DNA of 64,000 nucleotides from Elusimicrobiales bacterium (GCA_041665305.1 JBAYJD010000002.1:10068-74067), one strand, 5' to 3'; numbered from the stretch's first letter, positions 1 through 51,101 are shown. Program-made: numbers and translations. Notes: generated by a model from the sequence alone, not told the origin.

Positions 1-125
1 GATCGTACAGCGTTATGGTGACTTCGGCGTTGTCCGACAGCGTGTAAGCTATAGCCGTCTTGCCTTCCGCCCCGCCTTTTCTCGGGTCGAACGGATTGGG
101 ATAGTTGCGCACATTCGTAAGCACG
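1..125 (-). other. Start of an NYPNPF-type C-terminal beta-sandwich (T9SS type-A CTD or FlgD Ig-like pattern), truncated by the window edge
   Basis: VLTNVRNYPNPFDPRKGGAEGKTAIAYTLSDNAEVTITLYD runs to coordinate 2; NYPNPF is encoded at 89-106. It matches the widely seen consensus NYPNPF(N/D)P...T.I.Y.L.....V.(L/I).(I/L)YD. Such domains are normally the last ~80-100 aa of a protein, so the stop is probably a few tens of codons left of the window. Confidence 0.7.
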
Positions 126-24100: not shown

Positions 24101-27100
24101 GCCGGGAGAGTCCGTGGCTTTGGAGCGCAGCAGATACCATCTGCCGCTGGTCATAGCCGGAATCGTGAACGACCAGGTGCCGGACGACGCGCCGACAAAA
24201 TTAGTCGGATTGAAAGTTTCCGTCTGCCCTGAGAATATGGACCCGTTATAATAGTCGGTCGTGGCGCCGGTCAGCCTGCCCATGGAAACCTCGACCCGGT
24301 CGAGGGTCGAGAACAGGTCCACATCGGCCGCGGTGCCGGTAACCACGGAGAAGGCCGACAAGACTTTGGTCCCGTCCGGATCGTTCACACTGGAATGGGG
24401 GGCGACCTGGTCGTAAGTGAACCGGTTGGAACTCACGCCTACGGTGAAAAGATCCTGCTCGTTCAGGGCGGCATCTTTGGCTTTGGCGGTTATGATGAAG
24501 TAATTGCCGGTGGGCCAGGTTATCGCGCCGTAATTCCAGTTGGCGGCTGTGCCTTTCGCGGGGAACCAGCTGGAGGCGTCGCAGGCCCCGTTGAAATCGT
24601 CGAAAGCGGGCCGGTAGCACAAGCCGCCGACCTGCTGTATATTCAAGGTAATGGTGGACACGGAATAATTGTCGTAGCTCGTGCCGGAAATAGTCACCGG
24701 CGTCCGGTGGAACGAGCCGCCGGCCGGCACGGCTATCCAGGCCACGGGCTTCTCATCATCATACGCCACAGGCCCGAGGTCCTGGATCCTAAAATTACCA
24801 GCCTTGTCGGTAGTAAGGGTCCTTATCAGGTAACTCTTGCTGTTCTCAAGCGCGGGAAGGTCCCAGCCCCAGGTGTTGGGCGAAGCCGCATTGTTGTAGG
24901 CCGTGGTGGACTTGTAATTGGCGGCGTCGGAAACGCCGTTAAACGCGGTCCCGGTCCACCAGGTATAGGCCGCTCCGGCGCCGGAGGAAACGGCTATCTG
25001 CAGGCTCGCTACCGGCGAAACGGCGTCGGACGCCGTTCCGGCCAGGGCGGTAACCGCCGGGTTTATATAGGCCGGGGTGGTAAGCGCGGCGGTGGGCACG
25101 CTGAGATCAAAAGTGAAGGTGGACATAACCACCGCCGTCTGCACATTGCCGGCCATGTCGGTGGCGGAAGACTTCAGGATATAGCTGCCGCCCGAGGTCC
25201 ACGGCTGGGACGGGAAGTCATACTGCCAGCTTGAGACCGTGTTTTTGGCCGGGAACCAGGCGGGACAGGCCGCGCTGAAAGTATTAAGCGAAGGATCGTA
25301 ACAGTTGGGCGCGGCTATGGAGGTGTTCTGGAGGCTGAGGGCTATGGTTGAGACCAGGACATTATCCAGGGACCCGCCGTTTATCGCCGAGAGATTCCTG
25401 TAATAAGAATCATGAACGGGGACCGTGATGGACGCCGTGGGGACGCTGAGGTCGTAGGTGAAGGTGGAACCCCGGACATTGAAGAACGGTTCGTCGTTCG
25501 GGGGAGCCGCGGAGTCGCGGGCCCGCGTGGTGATGTAATAGGAGGTTCCGCTGGTCAGGCTGCCGGCCGGGATGGACGAATAGCTCCAGCTGTTCCCAGC
25601 CAGGACCGTAAATCTTTGCGCGGAACTGTCGAAGGACGATCCGGAGAAGGAACCGCCGGCCCACCACAGCCCGTCCGAATTCCTTCTGATGCCGATCTTC
25701 ACCTCGGCCACGGAACCGGCGTTGATGGCGCCCATATCCTGCGCCGTTCCGGAAATATCGGTCCAGGCGGAGGTTTTTATGTAAGAACCGGCGGCCGGGA
25801 CGGCGACCCCCGATTCCGGCGCCGTCACATCGTAGGTGAAGGTCATCGTGGAATAGACCGTGTCCAGGGTATCGAAATTATCCTTTGCCCTGGCCACCAC
25901 GGTGTAATTCACATCCGGCGACCAGGAGAAATCGGTGGTCCAGCCGGTCCAGAGCGCGTTGGTGGACAGCACGGTGAACCAGGCGCTGCCGCCCGGATCG
26001 GGCAGGGTGAAATTCTTTGCCGCGTTGTCCCACCACAGGTTGTCCCAGGTGTTCTCGCGGATCCTGAGCTGCACTTCTTTCACGCCCGAAGCGCCCAGGC
26101 CCGGGTCCGACGCGGTGCCGGTTATGGACGGCAGGTAGGATTTCCTGGAGGAAGAAGGCTCGACAATCCCGGCCAGCGGCGCCTGGGAATTGAAGGTCAC
26201 CGTGGCGGAGGAAAGCGGCAGGGCCTGGGAATTGCCGGCGAGGTCCAGAGCTTTCGTCGTGATCCGGTAAGCCCTGTTCTGGTACGGAACGGCTCCCGCG
26301 TACTCCCAGTAGAAGGTCCCGGCCGGGCCGCCCACAAGCGACGCCGCCACGGTCGAGACCGCGGAAATAAAGCTCGTCCCGTTCCAGTACGCGTCGTTCC
26401 CATCGAAGGTCCCGTCGACAGAGTCGCGGATCTCCACTTCCACGCGCGAACCGCCCACGCCGCTTATCCCGGCCAGGTCCCCGTTGACCGTGCCTGAAAT
26501 AACCGCCAGTTTCTCTATATATGTCCCGTCCGTCGGAACTGAGATCCTGGAGACGGGCGGCGTGGTGTCGTACACGACCTCGTAGATCGAGACGAGATTG
26601 GCTGAAAGGTCCGACGGATTGGCTGCGGGGACGGCGTTATCCTGCGCGCGGGCGCGGAAGCGGTAAACCCTGTCGGAGACCATCGCCTGAGCCAGGCCGG
26701 GCGGATTATAGGTCCAGACGCCGGAAGAGGAGCTCTGGGGCGACCAGGCGGTCGCGGACCACCAGGAATTGGTTTCATTGAGCGTGGAGGACGAGAACAG
26801 ATTGGCGTTGTCGTAGTAATAAGTGTCCCCTCCGCTCAGATAGGAGACCTGCGCCTGAATGTTTTCTTTGGCCGCGATGCCCGAATTTGTGGCGTGGTTC
26901 GGATCGTCGGCCGTGCCGCTTATGGGGGAAAGCGAGGAGATCTTCGCGTTCCAGGAGGGATAATCAATGGCAAGCAGCGGGGCGGTCTTATCCACGGTAA
27001 AGGTCACGGAGGAGCCGTTGCCCGCGAAATTAACCTGGACATTGCCGGCCTTATCGGCGGCCTCGGCCCAGATGGTATAGCCGTTGTCGTCCGTCCACTC

Positions 27101-30100
27101 GGGCAGGGCCGAAACAGCCCAGGAAGACTGGTAGACGGCCGCCGTGGTGGAAACCGTGGCCGTGCCGCTCCAGCCCGAGCCGTTCCAGTATTGGTTGTAC
27201 TTATTGTCCTTGATGTGGACATTTATATACTGGATCTGCACGCCCGGCTGCTGCCCGACATTGGCCAGGACCAGGTCTTCCTGTATGGTCCCGGAGGCGA
27301 CCGAGACGGCGGAACGCTTCTCCCCCGCCTGGACCGAGTTAACCGCGGCGGTGGGCGTTACGATGTCGAAGTTGAACACATTGGCGGCGGAAAGGTCCGA
27401 TTGCGTGCCTTCCAGCACGCCGTTATTGTAGGTCAGGTCCGAAGCCCTGCTCCTGGCCTCGTACTGCGCGCCGTTGGCGAACGCCGCCGTGGGATAGGAA
27501 ACCGTATAGCTCCAGGAAGAACCGGCGGCATAGTAGACGCCTTCGTTAGTAACGGTCTGGTTCCAGACCGCGGTATAGGTGGAGGCGGCATTGTCCCAGT
27601 ATTTGCCGGCGGACGCCCCGTTAACCGCTTTCAACTGCGCCCATACTTTGTAAATTCCGGCGGCGGGCGGCGTTATCCCCGGCGGGTCCGACGCGGCGCC
27701 TGAAAGGACCGGCAGGCTGTTGTAGTATAGCTGTGAAGCCGCCGGGACCTGCACCAGCGCCGAGGGCGCGGCCGTATCGAAGAAGATCTGGGCCGAAGCC
27801 GGCGCGGCCTCCGGCACCCCCGCTATGTTGGAACCGATGGAGCTGAAGGTGTAGGAAGAACCGGTTATAAATTCCGGCAGGTTCCGCGAAAAATTCCAGC
27901 TGCCCGCAACCGGTTGTATGCCGCCCGTGGAAACCTGGACGGACTGCCAGGCCGGGGTGTTGAAGTTCCAGTACCAGTTATCGGAGAGCCTCTGCAATTG
28001 CAGCGAAACCTTGTCGGTGTCGGAATTGGCCGTGCCGCTTATAACGGAGACCGCCTTCTGGTAGCGCGAAGCGCCGGGCGCCGTCACCCTGGTGACGCTC
28101 GGAGGAGGCGAGAACTTGAACCTTCTGGAAGAGGGCGCCGTTTCCCCGTTGGAAGCGTTGTCCGCGGCGCTGGACTTTATCACATAGTAGCAAAGCGCCT
28201 TCAGGTCGGGGCCGGTTATCGGATAGCTCCAGGAATCATCGGCCGGGATATAGGAATTCACGCCCAGCCATTTCTCGGAACCCTGCCAGGCGGAGCCGTT
28301 CCAGTACATGCCGTTATTGCCAGGCGCCGTGCAATCCGCGCCTTGCGTTCCGTCCTGCTGTATGCGGATCTGGACGGTGGAGATATCGGCGGTATAATCC
28401 GAGGCCGTGCCGGTTATGGCCGTTATGGTCTGCACCTCACCGTCCTCCACCGCCGGGACGGTTATACCGGAGAGCGGCGGGACCCTGTCCAGGGTAAAGG
28501 TGGAAACGGTAAGGCCGAAAGCCGAATAATTCCCGGCCCTGTCCGCCGCCTTCACCTTCATCACGAATGAGGCCGAAGACCGGCCGACCGACCAGGAATC
28601 CGCCGCGGTCGCCGGCGTATCGGCCGGCAGCGAGGAAGCCGACACGCTCCAGTTCTCGGCGGCCGTTATAACCCCGGAACTGTATGCCGTGCTCCAGGAC
28701 CTGGAGCCGAAGTTCCAATACTGGTTGGGCTGCCGGTCCGTGTCGGCAAGCTCTATCCAGAGCGCGCTGAGCCCGCTGGGGATGCCGCCGCCGGCCACGG
28801 GATCCAGCGCGGTGCCGGACAGCGAAGAAAGCGCGTTAAAGTAACTGAGATGGGCCGGCGCCGACACTCCGGCCAGCGGCGTGGAATAGTCCAGGATAAA
28901 AACGGCGGTTGAGTATGTTATTTCGGTATTGGGGCCGCCGTTCACCGGCTGGGTATTGTCCCTTGAATAGGACTGCACCTCGAACCTAAAGCCGTCGCCT
29001 TTATCAGCCCCGGTATGGCAATCCCCGAGATTCGCGCCTTTAAAATCGGAGGTGGACATTTGCAGGATCCATTGCGCCAAAGAGCCGGAATTCTGCGCCA
29101 TCCAGCCGTCGGTAAGCGGAGCCGTCACCCAGTTGTTGTACCCGGTATCATAATCGCAACGGGCATTGAGCGAGTCATAGCGGCGCACCCGCACGAAAAC
29201 ATTGTTCAGGCCGGAAGGAGCGGCGCCTAGGTCCCCGCCGTCGGTTTCGGAAGCGGTTCCGGCTATGTTGGAGATCGGCGTATTCCTGTAGATCACGCCG
29301 CCCCCGCCCGCAGCGGGCCAGGTGGATTTTGAAATCGGCACGAAACGGTCCATTTTAAAGGCAACGCCGCCGGTCGGAGCCGGCGTGTCCGCCGTGTTCT
29401 CATTCCCCACGGTATCCCGGCCTCTTACATAGACCGTGAAGTCGCGGGAACCCTGCAGGGTATTGAATTCGTTAATCAGGTTCGCGTCCGCATAGGTCCA
29501 GGAGGAGGTAAAGATCGAGGTGGCGTTCAGCCAGCTGGCCGCGCTGAAAGCTCCCCAGCCGGAGCCGGTCCAGTAATCGCCCGGGGTGTTGCGCTTGATG
29601 ACGACCTGCACGCCGTTCACCGGATTTATTCCGGAAACCGGCTCGGAGAAGTCGCCCGTTATGGCCGGCATGGAGGCGTAAGAGAAGGCGCCGGGCATGG
29701 TTACCGTGGTGACGGGGGCGGAATTGTCGTAGATGAACGATCTCTCTACGAAAGACTCCTGGTTGCCGGCGCGGTCCACGGCTTTTACGCGCACTTTGTA
29801 GACGGAGCCGTCGTTAAGCGCCGGAGGCCAGGTGTCAGCGCCCGGATAAGACCAGGAAACCGAGGAACTAAGCTGCACGCCGAACTGGCTGTCGGTATTG
29901 CCGTAATAGGTTATGGCGAGCGGGCGCCAGTTGTCGCCGGAATCAAAATTCCCCGCGCCGTCGTACTTGGTATTGGCGCCGACATCCACTATCTGGATAG
30001 CGACCCCCGCCGGAGCCACGCCGGAATAGGACTCCGCCGGCAGGTTAACCCAATCCACGGCGGTACCGCTAAGCGCGCTTATCTGGGCCAGGTTCTGATA

Positions 30101-33100
30101 AGCCTGATAGGGCGCCAGAATGGAGGACGAAGGCTTGTTGACATCGTAAACAAATTCGCGGTACACCGCCCCGGCGGCGCCGACCGGAGTGATATTGCCG
30201 GCCACATCTTTAGCCCACAGTTCTACTTTATAGCGTTTATTGGGGTCCAGAGCCGGCGCGGAAAGATCCCACGGATTGACCGCGTTGACTATCAGGAAGG
30301 TGGACCCCGCCACGCTCCACTGGCCGCCGTCCCATCTGGCTTCCACGGCCCGGTCCGGCAGCAGCCTGGAGAGCTCGGCCTTTACCGGCGGCACTATGCC
30401 GGCCGGAGCGTCGGCCGCATTGCCGGTCAGCTGGGTTATGGGCCGGATGTCGCTGTAGAAAGCGCCGGTCCCGGACATCGGGGTGGAGATCGTTATGGTC
30501 GGATAGTTGAAGTCCGAAGTGACCGAGACGGCCTCGGGGGCTTCCTGGTTGCCCGCCTGGTCGAGACCGGCTATTGAGAAATTATACACCTGGTTATGCG
30601 TGGAGATGACCGGCATGTCGTAGCCGACCGGAGGATAGTTCCAGGCGATAGTGGAGGCGGAAACCGTGAAGTCTACAGACAGTTCCACCACGGTCGGGGA
30701 GCTCCAGCCGAGAGCCGTAGTGCCTTTCCAGTACCAGGTATCCGCCCCGTAGGTGTAATAGATCCGCAGCTTAAGTCCCGACGCGCCGGAAGCAAGGCCC
30801 GAGGCGCCGCCGTAGCTTGTGCCGGAGAGCTGCGGGATGGAATTACGGATGTAACTGCCGGCCGTGGGCGTGGAAACCCTTGAAACGGGCGGGGTGCCGT
30901 CCACCACGAAAGAGCGGACGGTGAGCGGGTCCTGCATATTTCCGCCGTTGACGCCCATAGGCTCGGCCTTGTCGAAAGCCCTTGCCATCAGGGTATAGTT
31001 CTTGTCGGAGATCCAGTCCCCGGAACTGAAGGGATAGGTCCAGGTGTCCGTGCCGTTGACCGTCTGCCAGGCCGCTTCGGAAGAGATGGCGTTGGTGAAG
31101 ATAGAACCGTTCCAATAGTAAGTGGAACTCCCTTCCAGATAACCCAGGTTGATCTGCACCTTGTTCAGCTGATCCGGAGAGAACGGCAAAGGAGTATCTG
31201 CGGCGGTGCCGTTGAGGGCCGAAGCGCCGTTAAGGACCGAAGGCTTGTAATTGCCGGCGGCCAAAGGCTGGATTATACCGGAAGTCGGCGGGGTTTTATC
31301 GCAGATAAAGGTTATGGAGGAAACCCCGTCGGCAAACCCGTTCTGCGTATTACCGGAGCGGTCCACGGCCCGCACCTGGAGAACATACAGGAAACCGCTG
31401 TTAAGCGCCGCGTCGAAGCCCGCCGGAGCGTAGGACCAGGTATCGGTGCCCGCCACCACATTAAAGCTGGAAGAGAAGCTGTCGAACCCGGCGCCGGTCC
31501 AATATTTAGAGCCGTTGTAGATCTGGACTTCCACCCTGTCGAGGTCCGACTTATAATTGGGCAGATTGGAGCCGGGCGGGTCGAACGCGGTGCCGTTTAT
31601 GCCGGAAAGACTCCTGAACACCTGCCTGTCGGCCGGGAAACCCAGGTAGGCGTTGGGGGTGCTGGTGTCGAAGATCATGATGCTCGACGACGCCATGCTG
31701 TTCTCGTTGTTCTCGATATTGCCGGCCTTATCCCTGGGCAGCAGGAACACCCTGTAACGGCGGCCGTCCCTGAGGGCGGGATTCACCAGCGTCGCGGTGG
31801 ACCAGTTGACCGTGGCCTGCGGGGTATAGGCGGTTTCGATATTGGTGGTGGCGGAGTCGAAAGCGGAGCCGTTCCAGTAATAGCCGCTCTCCACATCTTT
31901 TATCCTGACGGACACCATGCCGCCGAATTCCTTCTGGAGCGAAGGCTGGGTTATATTGCCTGGGTCGGTGGCGGTGCCGGAGAGGGTCGGCATGGATCTT
32001 ATGAACTGTCCGACCGGGGCCGAAATAAAGCCTATGGGCTTGGTATTGTCTATCACGATCCTGAGCTGCGCGGGACTGCTTTCGGCCTCGTTGGAGGAGT
32101 TATAGCCGGTCACGGTTATGGTGTAAGAGGCGTTATCCACCGTGAAAGCCGCGGCGCTGTTTATGCCCTGGTTCCAGGAATTACCGTCGCGGCTGACAAA
32201 GGTATAGGTGTCGGAGTCCACCCAGTGCTGGGAGGGTTCATACCACCAGCTCGCGGCCCCGATCAGCCTTTGCAGGCGGATCTGGACGCTGTCCACCGCC
32301 CTGAGGTTGGTGCCGATACCCGCGATGTTCAGCACATCGGCGGGTCTGAAATTTTTATCATTGGCGCCGGCCGGGGTCTGGATCGTGGTATCCGCCTCCG
32401 GGGTCTGGACAGTGAAGGAGATGTCGGCGTTCTCCACCGTACCCGGAGATTTTTCGTTCGCGGCCTTATCCACCGCCAGGGCTATCACATTGTACTGGGA
32501 CTGGTTTATCCAGTTTATGGCCGAGGTGTTCCAGGTCCAGGTGCTGGGCTGGGCCACATCCGGATTATGCGCGGTTATAGTTCCGGTGGTGAACCAGATC
32601 CGGTTATTGGGATAGACCCCTCCGGGACAGGCCATGAAGCTGTTGAACAGGTTGTTGTAACATCTGGGACTGCCTTCGCCGCTCGTTTGTTTAAGCGAGA
32701 TCCTCACCACTCCCGGATCCTGCAACTGCCCGGGGAAAGTATCATAAGCCGTGCCGGTTATGGCGGGCACCGCGGTGACGCCGCCTACCGGCGCCGTGGC
32801 GAGGGAAACGGGCAGCGTGGTATCGCCGGTAAAGTAATTGGTGGTGTATGCCGTCTGAAGATTTGAAACTATATCGTGGACGCGGCTCATGGCGTAATAG
32901 GTGGTGCCGTCGGCTATGGCCCCGGCCGGCAGGTTATAAGACCAGGTGCCGGAGGAGACGCCCGAGAACGAAGCCGCATACCACTGCCTGGCGCCAAGGT
33001 TAAACCCGGAACCGTCCCACCATTTTTCATCCGAGAGCCGCTGGATGGCCAGTTCCACGCCGGACGCCGGATCAATGCCGGACTCAAAGTCACGCGGAGA

Positions 33101-36100
33101 AGCCCAGCCGTGCAGGTTTTCCACGGAGTCGTCGGCCGTACCGGTTATGGCGGGCACAGCCCCGATAAAGCTGTTGTCGGACGGGAAGGTTATTTTGGAG
33201 GCCGGCGTGGTAAGGTCCACCACGAAGGTGAAGGTGGAGAAATAGGCGCCGGAATAATTGTTCTGCGCCTGGTCGCGCGCGTACTGGTTTATGTAATACT
33301 GGTAGCCGTCCTGCTGGGAGGCCGCGCTGATATTTTTGGTCCAGTCCGGGAAGATAAAAGTGTCCGCGTCGTAGAAATCAGGAGCGCCCAGCCAGTTGCC
33401 GTTATAAAAGTCCCAGTAAGCCCCGCCCGAACGCCGCAGCCGCAGCTTAACTCCGCTCACGCCGCTGGGCTCGTTAAGACCGTTCTCATTATCGGAGGCT
33501 GTGCCGATTATAAGGCCGGTCGAAGCCGCCAGAGCGTAAGTTTGCGGCACCGTGACATCGGTCAGGGGTACGGCGCTGTCGAAGGCGAAGTAGTGCGCGG
33601 GGTTGCCGTCCGCCTTCAGATTGCCGTTGAACTGGACCTCCGTAGGGGTATCCATCCAATTGCCGGCTTTATCCACGGCCCTGACCCAGACCGAGATCTT
33701 TGAATTGTTGACCGGCGCAAGAGACGGCAGGGCGACGGACCAGTTGCCGCCCGCGTAGGCCGCGGTGCTCCAGCGGGTGTACTTTGTCTCGGGAGTGGTA
33801 TCCCAGTCATCCAGGGTATTCGTATAGGTGCCTTTCCAGTAGGCGTTAAAGGCGCCTCTGGCCTTGACCATGACATGTACCTTGTCTATGGCTCCGGAAT
33901 CGCCGGTGGTGCCGTACAAAGCGTTCACGGAATTGAAGTAGGCGCCGTTCGCCGGCGCTGTGGCGACCGCCACAGGCTTCTGGTTGTCGAACCTTATCAA
34001 CCGGCCCAGCCCGGCGGGGACGGAAGCCGGCTCTCCTGTATTGGGCCCGAATTCCCTGTTCTGCGCCAGATCGTAAGCCCAGGTAACGGCGAAATAATCA
34101 TTGGTCCCCAGGCCGCTCATGACCGACCGCACCTGGGCCGGCACGCTCCAGTTCCAGGACACCACCGGATTGCCCGAACCGTAAGGGCCGGTGTCGACGG
34201 CGGTCTCGAACCAGTAGGGATTGCCTCCGTCGAACGCCCCGCTGCCGGCGCTCCACCAGCCGCCGGTGTTAAGTTTCAGGGCTATCTTGACCGTATAAGT
34301 GCCTAGCCTGGCCTCGTAGGTCCTGTCGTTAGCGGCGTCGTCGCTGGCGGTGCCGGAGACGGACGCAAGCTGGTTGACATATTCTGTCGAGGGACTGGTT
34401 ATGGTGGAGGTCGGTTTATCCAGGTCGAATTTTATAACACGGGCGGCCGCGGCCGAAACATTCCCGGCCTCATCCTCCGACCGCGCTTCTATCTTATACT
34501 TGTGATCGTTGACGAAGACGATATTCGCGTTGTTGTAGTTCCAGCCGGCGGCCGGGCCAAGTGCATTAAGCCACAGCGGGGCGGAGCAGGCCGTAAATGA
34601 AGCTCCGTCGAAGCAAAGACTGTAATCATTGGTCTCGCCTATAACATCGCTTATAGCCACCGCCACCGTGCTGACCCCGGTATGCGCCGAACTTTGCGCG
34701 CTGGCGGAACCACCGGTCACCGGGGTGGAGACCAGCACGCTCGAATAAGTGGCGCCGTCCAGCGGGTAAGTCAGGGAAACCGTCGGAGCGGTCGTGTCGT
34801 AAGTCACGACATAGGTGGAATAAAGAACGGAGTAATTTCCCGCGTAGTCAAGGGCGCGGGCCTCTATGGTATAAGCCGCGTCGTCCTTAAGCATCGCGGA
34901 CGGCACGGTGTAATACCACGAAGTGGCGCCCAACCTTGTAGTGGTTATCCAGTTATTGTCGGAAGCGGCCCAGGCCGCGCCGGTCCAGTATCTGGTCCCG
35001 TCCACTCCCGTGGTGGAGATCCGGAGATCGGTCCATTTGTGCCCCGACAGGTCCGCGTCGACCGTTCCGCCTATGCCGCCCAGCGCCCTGACGGCGGGGG
35101 CCGAAGGCGTGGTGATCAGCACGGACGGCGGGGTATTATCCACTATAAATCTCGCGGAGGTATAAGGCCAGGTATTCCAGTTGCCCTCGCCGCCGTCGTT
35201 CGAAAGCCGGGCGTCGTCCATGGCCTTGGTTTCAAGGACATATTCCCTGTCGCCGGCCGGCCAGACCACGGCGCCGGTGTATTGCCAGGTCCAGGACGGG
35301 GCCGAGCCGGTAAGCGCGGTGTTAAGCCAGGCCGTCTCGGAACTGACCGCGCTGGTGAACGCCCCGCCGTACCAGTAATAAGTGTCGGGAGACTGTAGAT
35401 AAGAAAGCCTTACCTTGACATCGGCCACCCCCGCGGAATTGGCGGCTGGATTATCGGAAGCCGTGCCGTTAATGTCGTCCTGGCCGACGGACCCCGGCTT
35501 ATAGCGGCCGGCTATGCCGTTGCCGTCGTCGACGGGATAGATTATGACCGGGGACGGCGCCGTCTTATCCACAGTGACGACCAGCGAGGACTGGCCGACC
35601 GCGAATTGGTCCTGGATGTTCCCGGCCAGGTCCCTGGCCCTGGACAGGATAAGGTACCTGCCGCCCGTGGCCAGGACGCTGTCCAGCCCGGCCGGGGAAT
35701 AAACCCAGGAAGTGGCGTCGGGCGACAGGGTCCCCACCGTGTTATTGACATCATGCCAGAGCGGCGTTTCACCGGCGTCCGTAAAGTCGGCGCCGTCATA
35801 CCACCTGGGAGCCGCTCCCGTCAGCCTGCGCACGGCCACTTCGACCGCGGTGCTAAGCCAGGCGTCGTAAGCAGTACCGGCCACGGCGGAGAGGCTTCTG
35901 AGGCCGGATTTATTGGCGTCGACCGGCAGGGTTATCCTGGCCGTGGGGCTGGTAATATCGAAGGTGAACGCCTTGTCCGTGGCCGTGCCGGTGTTGCCGG
36001 CCTTATCCACGGACACCAGCTGGACGAGGTAACTTCTGTCGGCTTCCCAGGCCGCGCTGTTCTGGAAATAATCGGTGGTATAGGAGGCCACGCCGGCGTT

Positions 36101-39100
36101 GACCGACGCCGTCAAATAAGTTTCCGGCGCGTCCGCTGTAAAGGTGGAGGAGGCCCAGTTCCAGTATTGCGCGGATTCCTGGCGTTTCACCCTGAAGTAA
36201 GTGTTCACTATGAGGCCGGGCGGCACATCGCTCACGCTTCCGGTCAGGGAGCCGAGCGATCTGACGAACGCCTTGGAGGGATTCGTGACGGCGGCCAGCG
36301 GCGCGCTCGAATCGATGACGAAAGTCCGCCCCGCGCCGGGAGTTTCCACATAGCCGTTGCCGGTGGCTTTGGTTTTTACGCGATAGGTCCTGTTGCCGTT
36401 CCACGCCTCGGACGCGACCGAGGTGCTGCGCCAGATGGTTCCGTCAAAAGAATCCACCCCCAGATAATAGGCCGGATTGTCCTGCGCGGACAGCCATTGC
36501 AGGCCGCTCCAGACCAGGTCGTCGGCGTTATTCTCCACCCCGTCGGGCCCGAAATCCGTTATCCTGACGGCCACCGTGCTGGAATAAACCGCGGTGCCGG
36601 AAATGACGGGTTTCGGCGTCGGCGCCCAATGGGGCGTAGCCGCCGTCGGATCCGTTATAACCGAAACGGGCGGAGGTGTTTTGATGGTAAACAGTATATG
36701 CGGGCCGGGGCCGGTGGAACCCGGTTTTGCCACTTCATTGTTGGCTTTATCCACGGCCTTGGCGAAAATGCGGTAATCTATGCCGTCCGTGCTGGTGATC
36801 CAGGACGGGGTGGAAGCGCCAGTGGCCTCCCATTTATCGCCGGGCAGCACCGAGGCGTCATAGAAGATCTCGGAAGCGGACAGCCAGTTGCCGGCGGCGC
36901 GGTCCCAGTAACCGACGGGCGTACTTACCTTGTAATATGAAACCCTGACCTTATCCACCAGGCCGGGAGCCGTATCGGAAGCCGAACCGGAGACCACCGA
37001 CAGCTCCGTCTGGATCACCGAACCGTCGGCCGGATAAGTCACGGTGGAGGTGGGCGCGGTAAAATCGGCCTTGATGTTCGTGACGGTGGAATAGACCAGC
37101 TGGTAGTTGCCGGCCTTGTCCTGGGCGTAAGAATTTATCTCGTAGGTTTCACCCGTCTGCCAGGGGTTGGCGTTCAACTGCCACCAAGTCGCGGAGGCGC
37201 TCAGGGTTCCGTAGGTCGGTATATGGTTCCAGACCTGCGGCGCGCCCTCAAGCGTCCAGCTCGAATCCAGGACGCGGTAATAATGGTTGGCGTTCGGGCC
37301 GCTGAGCTGTTTAACACGCACAAAAAGGTCCTTCACGATGCCGTTGGGAGCGTCGTAAGAGCCGCCGGTGATCTTTCCGGTCTGGCTTATATAGCCGCCG
37401 TCCGACGGATATGAAACTGCGCTCGTCGGACGGGACACATCGTAAACGAAACTGCCTTTCAGCGCATAGCCTTCCTGGTTCTGGGCGGCGTCCCAGGCGT
37501 TGGTGTAAACGCTGAAAATAACGCCGTTGTTATTGTCGTACATGCCGTCAGCCGGCGTATAAGTCCAGTTATCGAACGACCCTGAGGGAGCGGCGTACAG
37601 CGTCGGAGGCGCGCCTCCCCAGATCGCGCCGCCCTGCCAATACTGGTTATCGCTCGACCTTCTGATATAGATCATGACATTGGACACACCCGAAGAGCCG
37701 GGATCGGCGCTGGTACCGCCGATAGTTATGCCTTTATAGTTGAAATGCTGATTGTCGGACGGATAGGTAACCGTGGAAGCGGGCGACTCGGTATCATATC
37801 TGAAGGTGGCGGTGGTGAAGGTCGTATCCCAGTTGCCGGCGGTATCCTTCGATCTGGCCCTTATGGTGTAACTGACTCCGCTTTGCCAGGTCGAGTTCTG
37901 GATATTGTAGGTCCAGCTGGCCGAGGTCTGGTAAATCTCGGTCTGGGCGGGGACCCAGGGCGCCGCGTTGATATTGGCGCAGGATGTCCATACAGGGAAC
38001 AAACCGGGATTGTAACACGCGGAAAGCTCGCTCATAACGGCGAACTGCACCTGTGAAACGGCGATATTGTCCCCGGCGGTACCGGTAATGTCCGGCAGCG
38101 TGTTGTGGTTGGCGCTGCTCGGCAGGGTTATGACCGTAACGGGCTTTTCATTATCGAAGGTCACCGTCACACCGACTCCGGCCGGCACATCGCCGTTCTG
38201 GGGCTGTCCGGAGTTGGGCCCGTACTCCCTGTTCTGCGCCAGATCGTAACCCCAGGTCACTATCCTGTAATTGGAGTTCTGGTTGTTCGCGTCCGAAAGA
38301 TAGTTATTGAGCGCCGTCGGCAGATTATAGGTGAATTTGCCGGTGTTGACGCCGGTCGTACTGAGATTGGCTTCGTACCACGACGGATTGGAAGCGGAGC
38401 AGTTGGTCCCGTTCCACCAGCCGGTTTCGGAACCGGTCAGCCTTTTGATGGCGACCTTGACCGTATAAGTGCCCAAACCCGCTTCATAGTTCCAGGAGGA
38501 GCCGGTCAGATCATCCGTGGCCGTGCCCCGTATCTGCGTAAATCCGGTGGTGTACCCGGCCAGCGGGTAGGTGATGGTGGAAGTGGGCTTTATGGTGTCG
38601 TAATTGATCGTCACGGCTGAAACCGCGGACGGATTGTCCGCGAAGTCCGCGGCCTGGGCGTCTATCCTGTACTGGACATCGTTCGCGAAAGCCAGGTTCG
38701 CGCTGTTGTAGGTCCAGTTGTCCCACACGCCGCCTACTTTGGCCGCCGTAAGCCAAGAGGGACAGGTTCCGAAACCAGTACCGTTAAAGCAGGCCTCGCC
38801 CGCGCCGCCGGGGTCCCTGATTATCTGCACGGCCACCGTGCTGACGCCGGTGTTCGCGGAGGTCTGGTCATTGGACGAAGTCCCGGTTATCGGAGTGGAG
38901 ACCAGGATCTGCGAATATGCCGCGCCGTCATGCGGGAATGTTACTAAAACGGACGGAGCCGTAGTGTCGTATGTGAACACATAAGTGGAGTATAGGGTGG
39001 AATAATTTCCGGCGTAATCCTGCGCCTGGGCCTCGGCGGTGTACACGGCGTCGTCCCTTAAGATGGAGCCGGGAACCGTGTAATACCACGAGGTCGCGCC

Positions 39101-42100
39101 AAGTTTGGACGAATGTATCCAGGTATTACCGGAAGCTGTCCAGACCGAGCCGGACCAGTATCTGGTCCCGTCCGGGCCGGTGGTGGAGATGCGGAGATCG
39201 GTCAGGCTGTGTCCGGCCAGATCGGCGTCGGCGGCGCCGTAGATGGAGAAAGAGGCCTTCTGGGCCGAAGCCGTCGGGCTGGTTATCAGAACGGAGGGAG
39301 GGGTATTGTCCACTATAAAGTACCGCGTCGCGTACGGTTCCACTTCCCACACGCCGTCCCCGCTGCCGTCAGCCAGCCGGGAATCGTCCATGGACCGGAC
39401 TTCCAGCTTATACTCCCTGTCGCCGGCCGGCCAGAGGATGCTGCTTGCATAACTCCAGGTCCAGTTGGGCGCTGAGCCGGATTTGGAAGTGGGCTGCCAG
39501 GCCGTGGCTTCCGTGAGGGTCCCGGAACTGAAACCGGTCCCGGCGCAATAATAGGTGTCGCCGTTCAGCAGGTAAGACAGCCTTATATATGAAGCGGAGA
39601 TATCGCCGTTATTCTGCGCGGGGGCGTCCACGGCCGTTCCGCTCAAATGATTGGCCGGGAACTGCCCGATGTTCGCGGGGGCATATCTGCCGCTGGAGCC
39701 GTCGCCGTCGTTCGCCGGCCGCGAGATGGCCGAGACCGGCGCGGTCTTGTCCACCTTTATGACCAGCGAGGACACATTTACGCTGAACCCGCTAAGCATA
39801 TTGCCGGCCACATCGCTCGATCTCACAAGTATGAAGTACTGGTAGCCGGATTCGAATTTATCGTCAAAATTCGCGGGAGCGTACACCCAGGTCGTCGCGT
39901 CGGGGGACAGGTAACTGCTTCCGGCGCCGTTCACGACATCCAGCCAGTGAGGCTCGGAAGCCAGGTCGCTGAAAGAAGTTCCGTCGAACCAGAGCATGGT
40001 GCCGGACAGCCATTTTTGTATGGCTATCTCCACTTTCTGGTTCTCCCAGTCGTCGGCCGCCGTACCTGAGATGGACGGCAGGGACCTTATGGCTTTGGCG
40101 TTCTGCGGCAGAAGTATCCTGGTGGTCGGGGAGGACAGGTCCAGCTTGAAGGTGACTTCCGCCGCCGTGCCCGTATTGCCGGCCTTATCCACCGACACCA
40201 GTTGCACCACATAATCCCTGTTCTGTTCCCAGGCCTGGTTGTTCAGGAAATAATCGGTGGTATAGCTCGCCACGCCGCCGACCACGCCGGCCGGAAGGTA
40301 GGTCTCGGGGGCGTCCGCGGTAAAGGTTGAAGCGGCCCAGTTCCAGTACTGCGAGGCTTCGTCCCGCTTGACGCGGAAATAAGTGTTCTGGATCACGCCG
40401 GGCGCGATATCGCCGACGCCGCCGATCAGGCCGGTCATGGAATTTACCCATCTGCGGTCGGGCGCCGTCACCGCCGCGGCCGGAGCGCTTGAGTCTATGA
40501 CGAACAGCCGTCCCGCGCCCGGAGTTTCCTCATATTCGTTGCCCGTATGAACGGCCTTGGACTTGACGCGGTAAGTTCTGTTGCCGTTCCACTGGTTCGA
40601 CTCCAGGTCTATCTGCCATACACCGTTCCCGGGATTGAAAGAATCCACGCCGAGGTAGAGATCGGGATTAGCGGACGCCGAGAGCCATTGCGTCCCGTTC
40701 CAGACAAGATCGTTCCCGTTCTCCAGGCCGTCGGCCCCGAGATCCGTTACCCTCACGGCCACGGTGCTGGAATAGACAGAGGTGCCGGAAATGGCCGGCT
40801 TGGGGTTCGGGACCCAATGGGGCGTGTTCGCGGACGGCGAGGTTATGCCGGAAACGGGCTGGGGGGTTTTAAGCGTGAATTCCATGTACGGCCCGTCCCC
40901 GACGGCGCCTGGCTTCGCGACTTCCAGAAGCGCCTTGTCCACGGCCTTGGCAAAAACCCTGTAAGCGATGCCTCCCACCGAAGTCACCCAGGTCGGGGTC
41001 GAAGAGCCGGTGGCCTCCCACTTGTCGCCCGCCAGCAGCGTCGCGTCATAAAAGATCTCGGCGCCTGAATTCCAGAGCCCGGAGGCGCGGTTCCAGTAAT
41101 TGCCGTCGCAGATGCCCGAAGCGCAATAATAGGAAACCTGTACCTTATCGAGCTGTCCAGGGGCCGTATCCGAAGCCGAACCGGAAATAACGGTGACCTC
41201 GGTCTGGAGAATGGAACCGTTCACCGGGTAAGTGACCGTGGAGGTGGGCGGCGTAAAATCGGCTTTTATCAGGGTAACGGTGCTGTAACCCAGTCTGTAA
41301 TTATCCGCCTTGTCCTTGATGTTCACGCTGATATCGTAGGTTTCTCCGGATTGCCAGGGAGTGGTGTTCAACTGCCACCAGGTCGCCGAGGCGCTTAATG
41401 TGCCGTAGGGCCCGCCCTGGTAGATCTCGTTCCAGACCTCGGGGACATTTTCCAGGGTCCAGCTTGAATCCGACACCCTCCAGTAATGGTCGGGCTTTGA
41501 GCCGGCGGTCTGCTTGATCCGCACATAAACCTTCTCAACGATGCCGTTGGGCGCGTCATAGGCGGTACCGGTTATTTTTCCGGCCTGGCTGATATAGCCT
41601 TTGTCGTACGGATAAGTCACGGCGCCGGTGGGCTTGGAAATATCGTAAACGAACTCCGCGTCCCTTACGGTGCCGAGATTGCCGGCGCCCGTGCCTTCCT
41701 GGTTCGTGGCCAGGTCGTCAGCCCTGGTAACTATCCGGTAAAGATGGCCATCCGTCCATTGCGGGGGATCGTAAACCGCGTTCCAGGTCCAGACCCCTCC
41801 GACGATATTACTGAACAGCCATTTGTCGCCGTCGGTATCGGTCCACCCCATGCCGGTCCAGTAGGTCGTACCGCGGGTGAGATCCTGAACATACATACTT
41901 AATCCGACGACCCCGGAGCCGCTGCTCGGATCGGTATAGGAACCGGTTATGGAGGACGTGGAAAGCTCCGCATGATGCGAACCGTCCGCGGGCGAAACCA
42001 CGGTGGATTCCGGTTCGGTGTTGTCGAACTTGAACGTTACGGTGGAATAGACGGCGTCATAATTATCCACGGAATCCCTGGCCCGAGACTCCAGGCGGTA

Positions 42101-45100
42101 AGTGTAGCCCGAACTCCACGGGAAAACGGAGGCGTCGAACGAGAATGTGCCGCTAGACTGGGACGGCGCGTAGGTGAAAGCGGCGGTGGACCAATAAAGT
42201 TCCGGATCGGAAGCGGATTCCCACCGGCGCGCGACGGCGTTCCAGTAAACATTCCCCACGGCCCGGTAGATCCTTATTTTCACGGCCTGGAACGGATCGG
42301 ACAGGTACATCTTCCGGTTATCCGAGGCGGTTCCGGAAACGGCCTGCACCGAATTCTGCGGCTGGGCCGCGGGCAAGGTTATAACGGATATGGGATTCGT
42401 CCTGTCTATGTAAAAGACCGCGGCGGAAGAATCAGGTCCCTGGTTGGCGCCCGTCTGAGTATTGTCCTTCGACCGCGCGCGCGCCGTATAAGTGTACGAA
42501 CTATGCCAGACGGTGTCCGCGAAGCTGTACGACCAGTTCACTGAAACCGCGCTGTAAGTGGAATCCGCCGTGAACCACTGCGAGGAACCGGCGCTCCAGC
42601 CGTTGACCGGGTCCCAGTACCAGTTGTTGCTGTCGCGCTGGAGCGAGATCTCAGAATTGCCTATGGGGATCACGCTGTACAGGTCGGTGGAATTGCCCTC
42701 TATTTTGGAAAGCGACCTGTAGACCGCGGTGTTCTGCGGCGTTGAGAAAGACGAAGAAGGGCCGCTGGTGTCGTATCTGAAGGTCCGAGAGGTATTCTGA
42801 GAAGCGTCCGCGTACCCGAGCACCGCGGGCAGGGCTTCGCTGTTGGAAGCCTTATCGTAGGCGCGGGTGCGCACATTGTAAACCTTGCCGTCAGTCCAGG
42901 CCGGCAGGGTCGAATAGGTCCAGGCGGAAGTGGAAGGCATCACGGCCGTATTAAAATATTCGTCCGTGACCCAGGTGCCGGAAGTAGACCACCAGTGCCA
43001 GTAATAGGTGGTGGCCTGGTTAAGATCGGCTATGGAGATCTCCGTCCGGTCCACGCCGGACAGATTGTCGCCGGCCGTGCCGCTCAGCTGGGTAAGGTCG
43101 TTGTAAGTAACCCCGTGCGCCGGAACGGTTATCCTTGAGGAAGGGTTAGTCTGGTCGAATGTCACGATCACGCCGTCAGTTTCGTCCGCGGCCGCGGTCT
43201 CCACATCGGCGCCGCCGTTATAGGCGCAAAGGCTCCTTATGCGGTAAACCTTGTTATTGGTCCAGGAGAAGCCCACCGTATAGGTGGCGCTATAAACCTT
43301 ATAATTGCCTCCGCCGAAACTTTCAAAGCCGCCCAGGGCCGCGTCGGTCCAGTCCTGTACCACCGTTGAGTCGGTTATATTCTCCACCCTAACCCTGGCC
43401 CAGGCCGGAGCGGCGGTCGAACCGCGGGAAAGTTTAAGATTGATCTCGGGAAGAGCGGTCAGATAAGAGCCGTGCGCCGGATTTGAAACATAGGAATAGG
43501 GCCAGACCCCTTTTTTCATGTAGATCGAGCGCCCGGCGCCGGCGGTTTCAGTCTTGGAAGCGGTCAGGGCCCTGGACCTTATCCGGCCTCTGAAATCTTC
43601 CGCGCCGGTGCCAAAGGCCGGCGGGAGGGCGTTTCCGGAGCAGACGAAATATTCTTTTCCGGAACAGGCGTTCCAGTAGCCGGTATCGCCGGACGCCCAG
43701 GAACCGTTCTCCCAGGTCCTGCCGGCCTGGTCGTATATATTGATCGCCACGGAAGTCACCGGCGTTTCGCCCCAGGCCTCGCCGTGCACAAATCCCAGCC
43801 TGTCGGTATAGGTGGTGTTGTCACCCGCCTGATAATCCCTCAGGTCCAGAAGCTGCGACTGCGGAACCGTGACATCGTACTGAAAAGTGGAAGTGGCAAG
43901 CGTCACATCGTAGTTGAGCGCCTTGTCGCGCGCGCGGGAGACGACCCGGTAATACCTGCCGCTGGTCAGTGTGGAAGGCGGCGCGAACGACCAGTTCCAG
44001 GCGTCGGTCCCGGACGACATGGTCCAGCCCGGGGTGACCCAGGTATTGGGCGTGGAGGTCCAGCCGGAACCTGTCCACCAGTTGTAATCCGCATCGTTAC
44101 CCGTACCCCTGTCTATGATCTGGAGCTGCACTAGATCCAGGCCCGTGCCGGGATACGGGTCCCTGGCCTGCCCGGTAAGATACTGCCATCTGCTTATTTT
44201 GGTCGCGTCCGCCGGGGTAAGCACCGCCGAAGTCGGGAGCTGCACGTCGTACTCGAAATAGTTCTCCACGGACGGGACCTGCTGGTTCAGCGCCGTATCT
44301 TTGGCCTTCACCTGCACCCTGAACCTGTGGCCGGAGCCGCCGTTGGAAAGAAGCGAAAAATTCGGCGTGGAATAGGTCCAGGACCGGCTCAGGTCCCCGG
44401 CTGAGCCCGCGAGGGTGACCGTGCGCCAGAGCGGCGTGCCGCTCTCCTGCCAGGCCGTGCCGTTCCAATAAGTGGTGGGCCATTGCAGCTCCCCGGCCGG
44501 ACCCAGCGCCCGGATCCAGACCTCGACCCCGCCGTTGGGAATGCCGCTTTTATCGTCGGTCGAAGTGCCCTGTATGGAGGCTATGGCATGGTTTGAATTA
44601 TTGTAATAGCCGTTGGCCGCCGGCAGCGAAACGCCGCTGGCGGGGTTCTGGGTGTCGATGGTGAAGGTAACGGTCGTTATAGCCGACTGCCACAACCCCA
44701 CATCGTCGCGCGACCTGGCGCTCAGCCTGTAGGAGGACGACTGCCAGTTGATGCCGCTGTAATAAAAATCGGCGGTTTTGACCGGAAGGTTCTGTAAATC
44801 CTGGGAACTGAACCAGACATCAAAACCGGGATCGTCCTCCCAAAAAGATCCGTTCCAGTACTTGGAACCGGTCGTATCTTTCAGACACAACTCCAGCTTA
44901 TCCAACCCCTGATTATCGGACGCGGTGCCGTAGATATTCCAGGAACCGGCGCTGTACACGCCGCCGTTGGCCGGGAAAGTGGCTATGGCCACGGGAGGCG
45001 TTCTATCGATGGTGAACGCCAGTTTGGGCGTGGAACCCGTATCCAGCGAATTGTTTTGCGCGTTCCCGGCTTTGTCGACCGCCTGCCAGCGGATCTCGTA

Positions 45101-48100
45101 GTTATAGTCGTTGATCAAGCCGGTGGAAAGATTTATGCTCCAGGCATGCTCCCACCTGTTCTGTCCGCCGTTCTCCGTACCGGCGTCAAGAACGGGATTG
45201 AGCGGCGTCTGTCCCCCCCATCCTGATCCGGTGAAGTATTTATCCAATTGCACATTGTAGAGGGACAGGTTGACCTTGTCCATGGAAGTGCCCACCGGGC
45301 TGTAACGGGAAGTATCCCAGGCCGTGCCGGTAATGGAAGAAAGTTCGAAAAGGACCGCCCCGTCGGTCATGCCGGTAACGGCGGCGGTGGGTTTGTCCAC
45401 ATCATACCAGAACTGCTGGGTCGCCACGGAACCCGTATTACCCGCCGGAAGGCTGGAATCCGTGCCGCGCACGCCCAGTTCATATTTCCTGCCGCCGACG
45501 AACGCGGCGGAAGAAATATTCATGCGCCAGGTTCCAGCCGAATAGATGCCGGTATTATAAACCACGGAGTCGGTCCAGGTCCTGGTGGTTTCGTTCCAGT
45601 AGGTCGCCCCGCGGGTCAGGTCCCTTAAACGCACCTCCACCAGCGCGGTGTCGGTATCTATGGTCCCCTGAGCGGTGGTCTGGAGGCCGAGCGGGGCGGA
45701 AAGATACCCAAGCGAAGCCGGCTCCGTTATGACCGCGACGGGCGCCACCCGGTCATAAGTGAACACGGCCGTCGAAAAAGCGGTTTCGTACCTGAGATAA
45801 TCCTTCGCCTGGATATTCACCTGGTACTGGGTGGGCGGCGAACCTACCCAGGCAAAAGCGTCGGTATAAGACCAGTTCGTGGTCCGCAGGGCCAGATCCG
45901 AACCCAGCTCTATCCAGGAGGAAGCCTCGTCGGCTGTAAAATCGTCGGCGGCGGCGTTCCAGTACAGCAGATCGGTGTTGCGCCTGATGCGCACGCGCAG
46001 GGAATCTATCCGGACATTATCGAACGCCGTACCGGAGACGACGGGCAGGGAGGAGTACCTGGACCCATCCGCGGGCGCGGTGCTCCTGGAGACCGGCGCG
46101 CTGGTGTCCCACCAGAAGGTCGCGGTGGAACGGCTGACCTCGGTATTGGGACCGGGGGTCGAGGTAATATCTATGCCGGCGGTGGTGAGGTAATAGGTGG
46201 TACCGTCGGTCATGTCGGCCGGGGCGGGCAGAAGGGTGGTTCTCGACCATAAAACATCCGTCCCTAGCGGCGGCTGAAGATCGTTGGGGCTGAACCACAA
46301 ATTCGGATTTGACGGTATGGGCCCCGGGGTCCAGCCGGCGGAGGTGTCCCAATATTTCTCATCGGAATTCCTCCACAGCACCCATCTGACGCTGTTGATG
46401 CCGCCCCGGCTGTTATCATGCGCCGTACCGCCTATCGCGGTAAGCGAATTTATCACGGCGTTGTTCACGGGAGCCGTAGACTGGGAGCTTGGAGCCGTGG
46501 TATCGTAATAAAACACCGTGGTGGACCAGTTAACGCTGTAACTCCCGGCGGCATCGACCACCCGCCCCCATATCGTATATCTGGAGTTGCTGCTCCAGCC
46601 GGGATTGGTGTAGGTCCAGTTTACCGTCGCCCCCTTGGCTCCGGAGGCGGGACCGGTGGACACCCATTTTGCGTAATTATATTCATCCCCCGTAGCGTAA
46701 ACAGCCCACCCGCCGGGGGTCCAGTACCTGTTATCCGCCCCCTCTTCTTTTATGAAGAGACTGACCCCGTTCTGCGGTATGAACTGGTTGTCCTGCGCCG
46801 TCCCGTATATGTTCCACGCGCCGGCGCCGTACCGGCCGCCGTCCACGGGGGAAGTGGACGCCATGGTCGGAGGGATCTTGTCTATTGTAAATGTCAGACT
46901 GGGGACGCCGGGGTTATCAAGAGAGCCGGTTTCTATATTTCCGGCTTTATCGGCGGCCAGCCAGCGTATTTCGTATGTATAATCGTTTATCCAACCCGTG
47001 GACGGGGTTATCGACCAGGTATGCTCCCACCTGTTCTGGCCCGCATTAAGGGCGCCCGCGTCAAGAGCGACATTAAGCGGCGTTTGCAAGCCCCAGCCGG
47101 AACCCGTAAAATACTGTCCTATCTGCGTGTTGAAGATTGAGATGTTGACATTACCGAGCGATGAACCCACCGGACCGTAGGAGGCGGTCTCCCATGCTGT
47201 ACCGGTAATGGAGGGAAGGCCGGACAAGATCGCGCCGTCCGTTATACCCGTAACGGCGGAAGTGGGTTTATCCACATCATACCAGAACCGCTGGGTGGCG
47301 CTATAGCCGACATTGGCGGAAGGAAGATCCTGGTCGGTGGCGCGCATATAGATCTCGTACTGCTTGCCGCTGACGAACGCGGCGGAGGAGATCTTCATGC
47401 GCCAGTAGCCGGGCGAATAGATCTGCGCCGTGTTCCAGACCGCCGCATTCGTCCATGATTGCGCCGTTTCGTCCCAATAGGTGGTTCCGCGGGTCAGATC
47501 CTGAAGACGCATCTCCACCAGCGCGGTATCGGCGTCGACAGTGCCCTGCATGGTGGTCTGAAGGCCCAACGGCGCCGTGATATATCCCAGCGAAGCCGGC
47601 ACGGTCACGACAGGCACCGGCACGGTGGTATCATAGGTGAAGGTAACAGTGGTATAACTAACCTCATAATGCGGGGCCGGCAGCGTCACCCTGTCTATGG
47701 CCCTGGATTGCATCTCATAACTCGCGCCGTCGCTCCATACGCCGGCGGGCATGATGAGCGCCCAGCCGGTGGTAACATTACCCAGCACCGTACCGTTTAG
47801 AACGCTCGTCCAGGCCGTATTGGCGTTCAGGGAATCGTCGAACTGCTGCGCGCTGTTGTTCCAGTAATAACCGTCGCTCAGCCGTTTTAACCTGAGATAG
47901 ACGGAATTAACGCCGGAAGTCTGGTCCCAGGCCGTGCCGTTAATGGTGGGTATGGAGTTGTAGCGGGCGCCGTTAGCGGGCATGGTGGCGACGCTTATCG
48001 GCGCGGCCCTGTCGCAGATCGCGGTATTTGTGGAATATACCGCCTCAAAATTTTCGTGCGGATACAGCGTATAGTCGCTGGCCTTACCGTAAAAAGCGTA

Positions 48101-49897: not shown

Positions 49898-49935
49898 GAG
49901 CCTTTTGCACTCTGACGACTTTTTGATATTTCCGA

Positions 49936-49985
49936 GAAAAAGACCGTGCGCAACGGATTGCGTTCCGTTTGTCCCGGTCTTTTTC
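49936..49985 (-). terminator. A5-stem-loop-T5 hairpin between the HEAT gene stop and ATG 49897 (terminator or attenuator-like; it would be coding if ATG 50005 is the true start)
   Basis: On the minus strand: GAAAAAGACCG-ggacaaacggaacgcaatccgttgcgca-CGGTCTTTTTC. The outer stem is 11 bp (49936-49946 with 49975-49985), with an inner aacgga/tccgtt pairing and a following T-run. Confidence 0.3.
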
Positions 49986-50036
49986 AGGGCGTCTTTCAGT
50001 TTCATATTAACCGTTGCCGCCGGCCAAGCCGTACGA

Positions 50037-50798: not shown

Positions 50799-51060
50799 AC
50801 ACTTAACGCCTAAAGCGCTATAAGGACGCTTGCGAACAAGCTAAACGCCAAGTATTTCACAAACGCAAATAAGCGCCGCCTCCGGAAACTCCTGTCATCC
50901 CCGGTGTTCGACGCCTTTGATAAATATCATAGTAATTATAATACAAAGATGATATTACAAAAAAGTTAATTTTTTGGGTAATTTCCGAAACCTCCCTCTT
51001 TTGCATAATTCCGGTCATAAATCCCTTCTCCCGGCCCGGCCTGGGAACGCGGCAGTGCGG

Positions 51061-51101
51061 CAGAAAAACGGCCTGACGGGACGGCGCGCGCAATTCAGGC
51101 C
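51061..51101 (-). terminator. Second intrinsic-terminator-like hairpin downstream of sRNA-like unit A
   Basis: The minus-strand RNA reads GGCCUGA-(18 nt)-UCAGGCC followed by GUUUUUCUG. The stem arms are 51095-51101 and 51070-76. Confidence 0.4.

Follow-up and report, generated by a model that had tools for sequence, protein, structure and literature searches.

The window analysed here, a stretch of 64,000 nucleotides (nt) from an Elusimicrobiales bacterium (GCA_041665305.1, JBAYJD010000002.1:10068-74067), carries on its minus strand a giant gene that encodes a long array of immunoglobulin (Ig)-like modules. Nine consecutive modules of this array are present twice with a period of 11 modules, an observation that is real and far beyond chance. 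The two copies, designated A and B, very probably go back to an ancient event in which a super-unit of 11 modules was duplicated in tandem and in frame, with a later conversion of part of one copy.

A nine-module block present twice

An iterated profile hidden Markov model (HMM) identified 73 type-1 Ig-like modules of ~125 amino acids (aa) in the giant protein (residues 422-9708). A reading of the sequence alone (hereafter the sequence-only reading) had proposed a segmental duplication of 10-11 modules from two pairs of landmarks, and did not mention that the giant gene lies on the minus strand. Both pairs occur on that strand at the offsets claimed: FVYDISKPT (41653) and FVYDVSRPT (37450) are separated by 4203 nt (3 x 1401), and the two instances of FIVDNTPPSV (39319 and 35149) by 4170 nt (3 x 1390). 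The collinear amino-acid similarity was also recovered by BLASTP on the protein cut into chunks, with residues 2801-3500 matching 4202-4891 (60.7% identity over 704 columns) and residues 3155-3846 matching 4551-5237 (55.9%). In an all-against-all alignment the background identity of module pairs is 29.3 +/- 4.8%, while modules 20-28 are, in order, 67, 68, 69, 69, 46, 48, 70, 52 and 45% identical to modules 31-39. All nine pairs are reciprocal best partners, and the offset between the copies is exactly 11 modules. Modules 29-30 and 40-41 show only background identity to each other (29 and 32%), and orthologue profiles likewise show no homology between them. Thus, the figure of 10-11 modules holds as an 11-module period but not as the extent of the copy, only nine modules being clearly duplicated.

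The duplication is also visible in the DNA, where the expected off-diagonal consists of ungapped stretches, the longest of 300 nt, that are 70-75% identical. Its offsets are 4203, 4194, 4188, 4182, 4173 and 4170 nt, every one a multiple of 3; each indel that separates the copies thus keeps the frame, and the net difference amounts to eleven codons. Copies A and B match by BLASTN at 70% over 1.5 kb, and the nucleotide identity of the individual module pairs ranges from 53 to 71%. The 11-module periodicity does not extend significantly beyond two units: in the downstream part of the array the mean identity at offset 11 is 0.311 versus ~0.295 (z = 1.6). The features of the region are as follows.

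2..50005, minus strand: giant open reading frame (ORF), delimited by a stop-free frame and start codons; continues beyond the window start
41654..42415, minus strand: modules 18-19, placed by orthologue-profile ranking
38165..41653, minus strand: copy A, modules 20-28, block positions 1-9; HMM boundaries, 45-70% identity to modules 31-39
40151..41653, minus strand: high-identity tract of copy A, positions 1-4; 67-69% (aa) and ~70% (nt) identity to 35969-37450
38978..39319, minus strand: position 7 of copy A (module 26), with FIVDNTPPSV; 70% identical to module 37
37451..38164, minus strand: modules 29-30 ("a, b"), between the copies; background identity to modules 40-41
33998..37450, minus strand: copy B, modules 31-39, block positions 1-9; HMM boundaries, identity and DNA off-diagonal
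35969..37450, minus strand: high-identity tract of copy B, positions 1-4; putative recipient of an old A-to-B conversion
34808..35149, minus strand: position 7 of copy B (module 37); 70% identical to module 26
33227..33997, minus strand: modules 40-41 ("c, d"), downstream of copy B; not detectably duplicated, with positional orthologues in relatives

In searches with orthologue profiles, modules 30 and 19 are reciprocal best matches and module 29 is the best match for the module 18 profile, the next-best module scoring 5-8 bits lower. These rankings are suggestive of modules 18-19 and 29-30 probably being the diverged heads of two units, which suggests that the units are contiguous and in tandem, unit 1 spanning 38165-42415 and unit 2 spanning 33998-38164.

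Conserved order and block copy number in related loci

The array was compared with 51 related loci from JGI metagenomes and GTDB species representatives, plus two contigs obtained through protein hits. The profile used to scan contigs was built from an alignment of five closer sequences, and the loci were cut into modules, each labelled by its best match in the window. The comparison is between species, with orthologue identities of ~50-75%. Downstream of copy B, the order of modules 40, 41, 42 ... 58 is kept one-to-one in almost every locus, at 45-75% identity, so that each module has orthologues defined by position. Nearly all loci share the segment "7 8 9 a b 1 2 3 4 5 6 7 8 9 c d": in nearly all of them, A copies carry modules of the 27/28 type at positions 8-9 followed by modules 29-30, and B copies carry modules of the 38/39 type followed by modules 40-42. 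Thus, the upstream copy with modules 29-30 and the last copy with modules 40-42 would already have been present in the common ancestor.

The comparison of copy number in relatives, which the sequence-only reading had called for, revealed that the block occurs in ~1.5 to 3 copies, which may be complete, cut short or interrupted. Architectures include 123456789ab123456789cd, 1234567ab123456789, 567ab12345678956789ab123456789 and a form with three units. Two full units arranged as in the window are found in seven loci (L032, L035, L041, L046, L008, L011 and L013), and two full units accompanied by partial units in four (L009, L019, L039 and L042). L029 has three units, and the maximum, seen in L029, L039 and L042, is about three. 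Other loci depart from the window within copy A, which lacks positions 8-9 in L030, L031 and L034, has positions 2-6 swapped for unrelated modules in L006, L007, L010, L014, L015, L026 and L044, and is broken by about ten extra modules in L005, L021 and L023. Several relatives repeat a unit of 11 modules, namely "1-9, a, b". Protein length and architecture therefore differ between species.

Orthologue contigs often terminate inside the giant gene, and the syntenic contig of GCA_026388155.1 terminates within its block. A frameshift or stop, which may be real or a sequencing error, splits the gene call in two orthologues (L004, at 16560-16700, and L005, at 7000-7030). One locus of typical order (FGHIE...Rb1), L054 (JBGFRZ010000008.1), belongs to a bin with the label Ignavibacteria, the remaining named loci being all from Elusimicrobia; this label may reflect mis-binning or horizontal transfer.

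Age of the duplication

Neighbour-joining trees (200 bootstraps, alignments of ~120 columns) separate all A from all B modules at position 9, with 97% support for seven genomes and 99% for 11 genomes. Synonymous sites between the copies are nearly saturated: where the amino acids are identical, the same codon is used 1.1-1.4 times as often as expected from codon usage, compared with 1.03 in control pairs. Dating by the ratio of non-synonymous to synonymous substitution rates (dN/dS) is not meaningful because synonymous sites are so close to saturation. Judging from the trees, the duplication is ancient and had taken place before 11 or more species-level lineages diverged.

Probable gene conversion between the copies

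In the window, copies A and B are 67-70% identical at positions 1-4 and 7. In the seven relatives with the same layout, the corresponding identities are 40-65% (mostly 45-56%) at positions 1-4 and 46-64% at position 7. In trees of 11 genomes, the A and B modules of the window are sisters at positions 3 (92%) and 4 (81%), and are nested in the A clade. The seven-genome trees display the same contrast with position 9, with supports of 98% at position 3 and 88% at position 4. At position 1, module A of the window pairs with the A module of L046 (92%) and module B falls within the same A-type group (68%); support for conversion at position 7 is 41-57%. The two paralogues of the window thus cluster together at positions 3-4 while position 9 keeps the A|B topology, which is the pattern expected under gene conversion. 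The simplest reading of these trees is an A-to-B conversion tract of ~1.5 kb in the lineage of the window, best supported at positions 3-4 and possible at positions 1, 2 and 7. The tract is old, as synonymous sites within it are nearly saturated too. Isolated patches of high A-B identity also occur in other genomes, at other positions.

Stronger purifying selection at positions 1-4 and 7 might account for the higher identity without any exchange of sequence, but this explanation is unlikely. It would fit the same-codon ratio, which is barely higher at positions 1-4 and 7 (~1.29) than at positions 5, 6, 8 and 9 (~1.21), and the fact that conservation across homologues is highest at positions 1-2. 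Constraint, however, alters branch lengths and not topology, and module B of the window is nested among A modules at positions 3-4 (81-92%). Moreover, the identity between orthologues at positions 3-4 (42-66%) is not above that at other positions, and relatives of the same layout show A-B identities of 46-61% at positions 3 and 4.

It is decidedly unlikely that the block was instead duplicated independently in each lineage, with the likeness at positions 1-4 marking a younger, lineage-specific duplication. The separation of A from B at position 9 in all genomes (97-99% bootstrap) and the positional orthology of the flanking modules 29-30 and 40-42 across genomes both contradict such parallel events. 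Gains at the level of blocks clearly recur among the relatives, and sporadic patches of high A-B identity (L021, position 1, 70%; L008, position 2, 65%; L019, position 1, 65%) would be compatible with them, but re-duplicating just positions 1-4 into a homologous site would in practice be conversion or replacement.

Growth of the array

The claim that the array grows by block duplication of multi-module units is borne out by the nine-module copy, by a second block event elsewhere in the array and by the variable number of block copies in relatives. There is no sign of recent slippage of single modules, adjacent modules being on average 29.7% identical (maximum 40%), which is not above the identity of distant modules.

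The 11-module block would most likely have originated by unequal in-register recombination, or by replication slippage, between homologous modules 11 apart, a step that would have added ~1,400 residues with the frame intact. This in-frame tandem duplication of the super-unit would predate the split of the sampled related species. Separate lineages would afterwards, more than once, have gained blocks or had them truncated, interrupted or replaced, and in the lineage of the window part of copy B would have been overwritten by copy A through gene conversion, an event that is itself old. The outcome would be a longer fibre with two sets of related but non-identical modules.

The second block event involves modules 4-5 (46892-47641) and 9-10 (45017-45763), both on the minus strand, which are 65-67% identical at an offset of five modules; the preceding modules 1-3 and 6-8 are just 25-38% identical. 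Relatives carry either head cassette 1-2-3 (L006, L035) or head cassette 6-7-8 (L030, L031, L046), followed by a single 4/9-5/10 pair, whereas the window carries both head cassettes in tandem. An isolated, weaker pair on the minus strand is formed by module 61 (25463-25840) and module 71 (21764-22117), with 48% identity at an offset of ten modules (41.6% over 166 aa by BLASTP); the neighbours of these modules show no elevated identity.

Recombination and assembly

The sequence-only reading regarded the duplication as a recombination substrate that could vary protein length between cells. DNA that has diverged by ~30% is a very poor substrate for RecA-type recombination. At that divergence, the copies are too different today to recombine efficiently or to mislead an assembler. 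A recent duplication still active as a recombination substrate, with Periscope-like length variants in the population, is thus very improbable. The A/B pair does contain the longest exact DNA repeats of the gene, block copy number does vary between species, and one contig ends inside copy A. Against this, the longest exact direct repeat in the whole 50-kb gene, within the A/B pair at 34053/38226, measures 24 nt, DNA identity does not exceed 71% in any module pair, and synonymous sites are almost saturated. The layout is also ancient, the two copies forming separate orthologous lineages in at least 11 genomes. Periscope proteins, for their part, are defined by a very high identity of repeat DNA (PMC9704523), which is absent here. 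The past exchange detectable as the old conversion tract is the sole sense in which the recombination idea holds.

The expectation that this region is the place most likely to be collapsed or expanded in assembly was not supported either, with copies ~70% identical and assemblies that agree where compared. Together, contigs from the ENA, JGI and Logan assemblies match 40037-64000 of the window at 100% identity, the JGI contig having been compared over 46860-64000; Logan contig SRR6484324_1319 reaches 49.4 kb into the giant gene. The JGI contig Ga0376277_0003286 ends at residue 3397 (~39814 in the window, module 24), inside copy A; there is no notable repeat at the break point, and the break is therefore not attributable to the duplication. 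Giant repeat genes are often fragmented, and both the JGI and the orthologue contigs end within the gene, but the chance that the copies are an artefact (a mis-joined or expanded repeat, or a two-strain chimera) is virtually negligible: an artefact would yield near-identical copies, whereas these differ at ~30% of bases and by in-frame indels, the frame is open for 50 kb, and the A-ab-B-cd layout has been assembled independently in many metagenomes and metagenome-assembled genomes (MAGs).

Several points weigh against the proposed history of an ancient tandem duplication followed by partial conversion. Modules 18-19 and 29-30 are weakly related and the profile margins that pair them are small, such that the copy may possibly comprise nine modules and be non-tandem. 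The trees are neighbour-joining trees on ~120 columns, and at positions 2 and 7 they favour conversion only weakly. Positions 5-6 have A and B labels that are partly swapped from one genome to another, module B of the window grouping, for example, with the A module of L008, and the history is therefore more mosaic than a single duplication and a single conversion. Finally, the cross-assembly comparison extends only as far as 40037, within copy A.

The giant gene and its product

The frame of the giant gene is open from 50047 to 2, without a stop, and contains at least 16,682 codons, as it exits the window start. Its first ATG is at 50005 and its second at 49897, the latter followed by a signal-peptide-like stretch (judged by eye), MLPFSAKRLLLPFVAVLWFMGGRQCFA. 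The gene was called at 16,733 aa on ENA contig ERZ27249449 k141_148092 (102 kb), indicating that the C-terminal 65 aa of the protein fall outside the window. Four antisense ORFs of 170-444 codons lie on the plus strand within the duplicated region (34682-35398, 35606-36940, 38105-38620 and 40547-41068); given the 50-kb open frame on the minus strand, they are most likely by-products of a coding strand with 60% guanine plus cytosine.

The bulk of the giant protein has no match to a Pfam or NCBIfam model. The exceptions are matches to the bacterial Ig families Big_7 (41 bits, cut-off 24.1) and Big_3_2 (32 bits, cut-off 23.3) in Pfam, those to Big_13 and Big_3_4 being below cut-off. An AlphaFold2 model of module 20, computed from an alignment of the 73 paralogous modules, is all-beta with 10 strands and has a predicted local distance difference test (pLDDT) score of 91.5. 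Its nearest solved folds in a Foldseek search of the PDB are Ig V-set domains (E ~5e-4, template modelling (TM) score 0.35-0.53). Thus, the giant protein is a very long chain of Ig-like sandwiches.

The 73 type-1 modules are followed by a second array of ~29 modules of ~125 aa, recognized by a different HMM (residues 9847-13582, ~9301-20506 in the window, minus strand). No Pfam or NCBIfam model scores above cut-off in the N-terminal domain, in the type-2 repeats or in the C-terminal 3.7 thousand residues. Within the segment from residue 14146 to the end of the window (2-7609, minus strand), ~2,500 C-terminal residues show no repeat family and no Pfam or NCBIfam match. No type I secretion system signal, RTX motif or cell-wall anchor was detected in the part of the protein inside the window (the last 65 aa being outside). 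The product is probably a secreted, rod-like protein of Ig-like beta-sandwich modules, and by analogy with known adhesins it would be exposed at the surface and function in adhesion. This assignment is weakened by the fact that secretion and surface location rest on the by-eye signal-like N-terminus and on that analogy.

The genes upstream of the giant gene are ordinary, with two-component regulators among them. This upstream set (50037-60750, minus strand), which is conserved with GCA_026388155.1 (L004, 1-9994), encodes a dCache sensor kinase, a hybrid kinase/receiver protein and a LuxR-type response regulator. It also contains four ORFs that are small or unannotated, the gene for an S41 peptidase and, directly before the giant gene, that for a HEAT-repeat protein. 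These neighbours may regulate or process the giant protein. The Elusimicrobia MAG GCA_026388155.1 also carries a syntenic orthologue of the giant gene, preceded by the same neighbourhood. The named homologues are from Elusimicrobia/Elusimicrobiota MAGs, except for one record from a Thermoprotei archaeon, and the host is an uncultured Elusimicrobiota bacterium.

Significance of the block structure

Block duplication is a textbook mechanism, known from titin, nebulin and many adhesins, and the present result is therefore confirmatory rather than surprising: to a well-known mechanism it adds an example from a family of giant, uncharacterised proteins. It traces the construction of a bacterial gene that is among the largest: multi-domain blocks were duplicated in frame and then diverged, with one at times overwriting another. 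In a clade of uncultured Elusimicrobia, gain, loss and rearrangement of the same block still go on. The copy is a record of gene growth and very probably not a present-day length-switching site or a mis-assembly, and the duplicated region can be trusted in the contig. The map of positional orthology (modules 1-9 with a and b, then c to u) could serve to order fragmentary pieces of giant genes in Elusimicrobia MAGs.

A further, rather unlikely possibility is that the 11-module block is a functional cassette and not a passive relic. Elusimicrobia would then reshuffle, truncate, convert and re-duplicate this block, and likewise alternative head cassettes at the N-terminus. In this way they would adjust how long a surface fibre of half a micrometre is and in which order specific binding modules follow each other along it. 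If so, the strict order of the downstream modules would reflect a periodic structure of the binding partner, as in titin, and the gene would represent a bacterial molecular-ruler or cassette-diversification system.

Comparison with known systems

Elusimicrobia form a phylum rich in proteins longer than 5000 aa (PMC11573180), of which the giant gene described here provides an example. A literature search found no paper on this giant protein family or on its block structure. The giants of Omnitrophota are multi-domain enzymatic or HEAT/dockerin mosaics (bioRxiv 10.1101/2023.11.21.568195), whereas the giant protein consists almost wholly of tandem beta-sandwich modules.

Proteins of the Periscope type, with high-identity repeats (Rib, SasG/Aap, SHIRT), have near-identical repeat DNA, undergo frequent homologous recombination and vary in repeat number at the strain level (PMC9704523). 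Like the giant protein, they are probable surface rods of tandem beta-sandwich domains whose length varies among relatives. Neighbouring modules of the giant protein, however, are ~29% identical and its block copies ~70% identical in DNA, and its variation is seen between species.

The nearest functional comparison would be with giant Ig-like adhesins such as SiiE of Salmonella, which has many bacterial Ig-like (BIg) domains (PMC6272769), and with the 51-Ig adhesin of Mobiluncus (PMC10619420). All comprise many tandem, individually distinct Ig-like domains and are the largest protein of their proteome, and the giant protein shares with Ig-like adhesins its weak matches to the bacterial families Big_7, Big_3_2 and Big_13. 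With its 16,733 aa, it is longer than these adhesins by a factor of three to four.

In its mode of growth, the giant protein most resembles the A-band part of titin, in which Ig and fibronectin type III (FnIII) domains are arranged in super-repeats of 7 or 11 domains that arose by serial block duplication, with domains at equivalent positions being the most alike (PMC10665226). Both proteins are giant rods of beta-sandwich modules of ~100-125 aa, in both the domains at the same position of successive units are more alike than neighbours, and both grew at the level of the super-repeat and not of single domains; the shared 11-module period is a coincidence. Unlike titin, the giant protein is bacterial, is unrelated in sequence and has one type of module in place of an Ig/FnIII pattern, with two units in the window and up to about three in relatives. 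The likeness to titin is thus an analogy of mechanism and not a family relationship.

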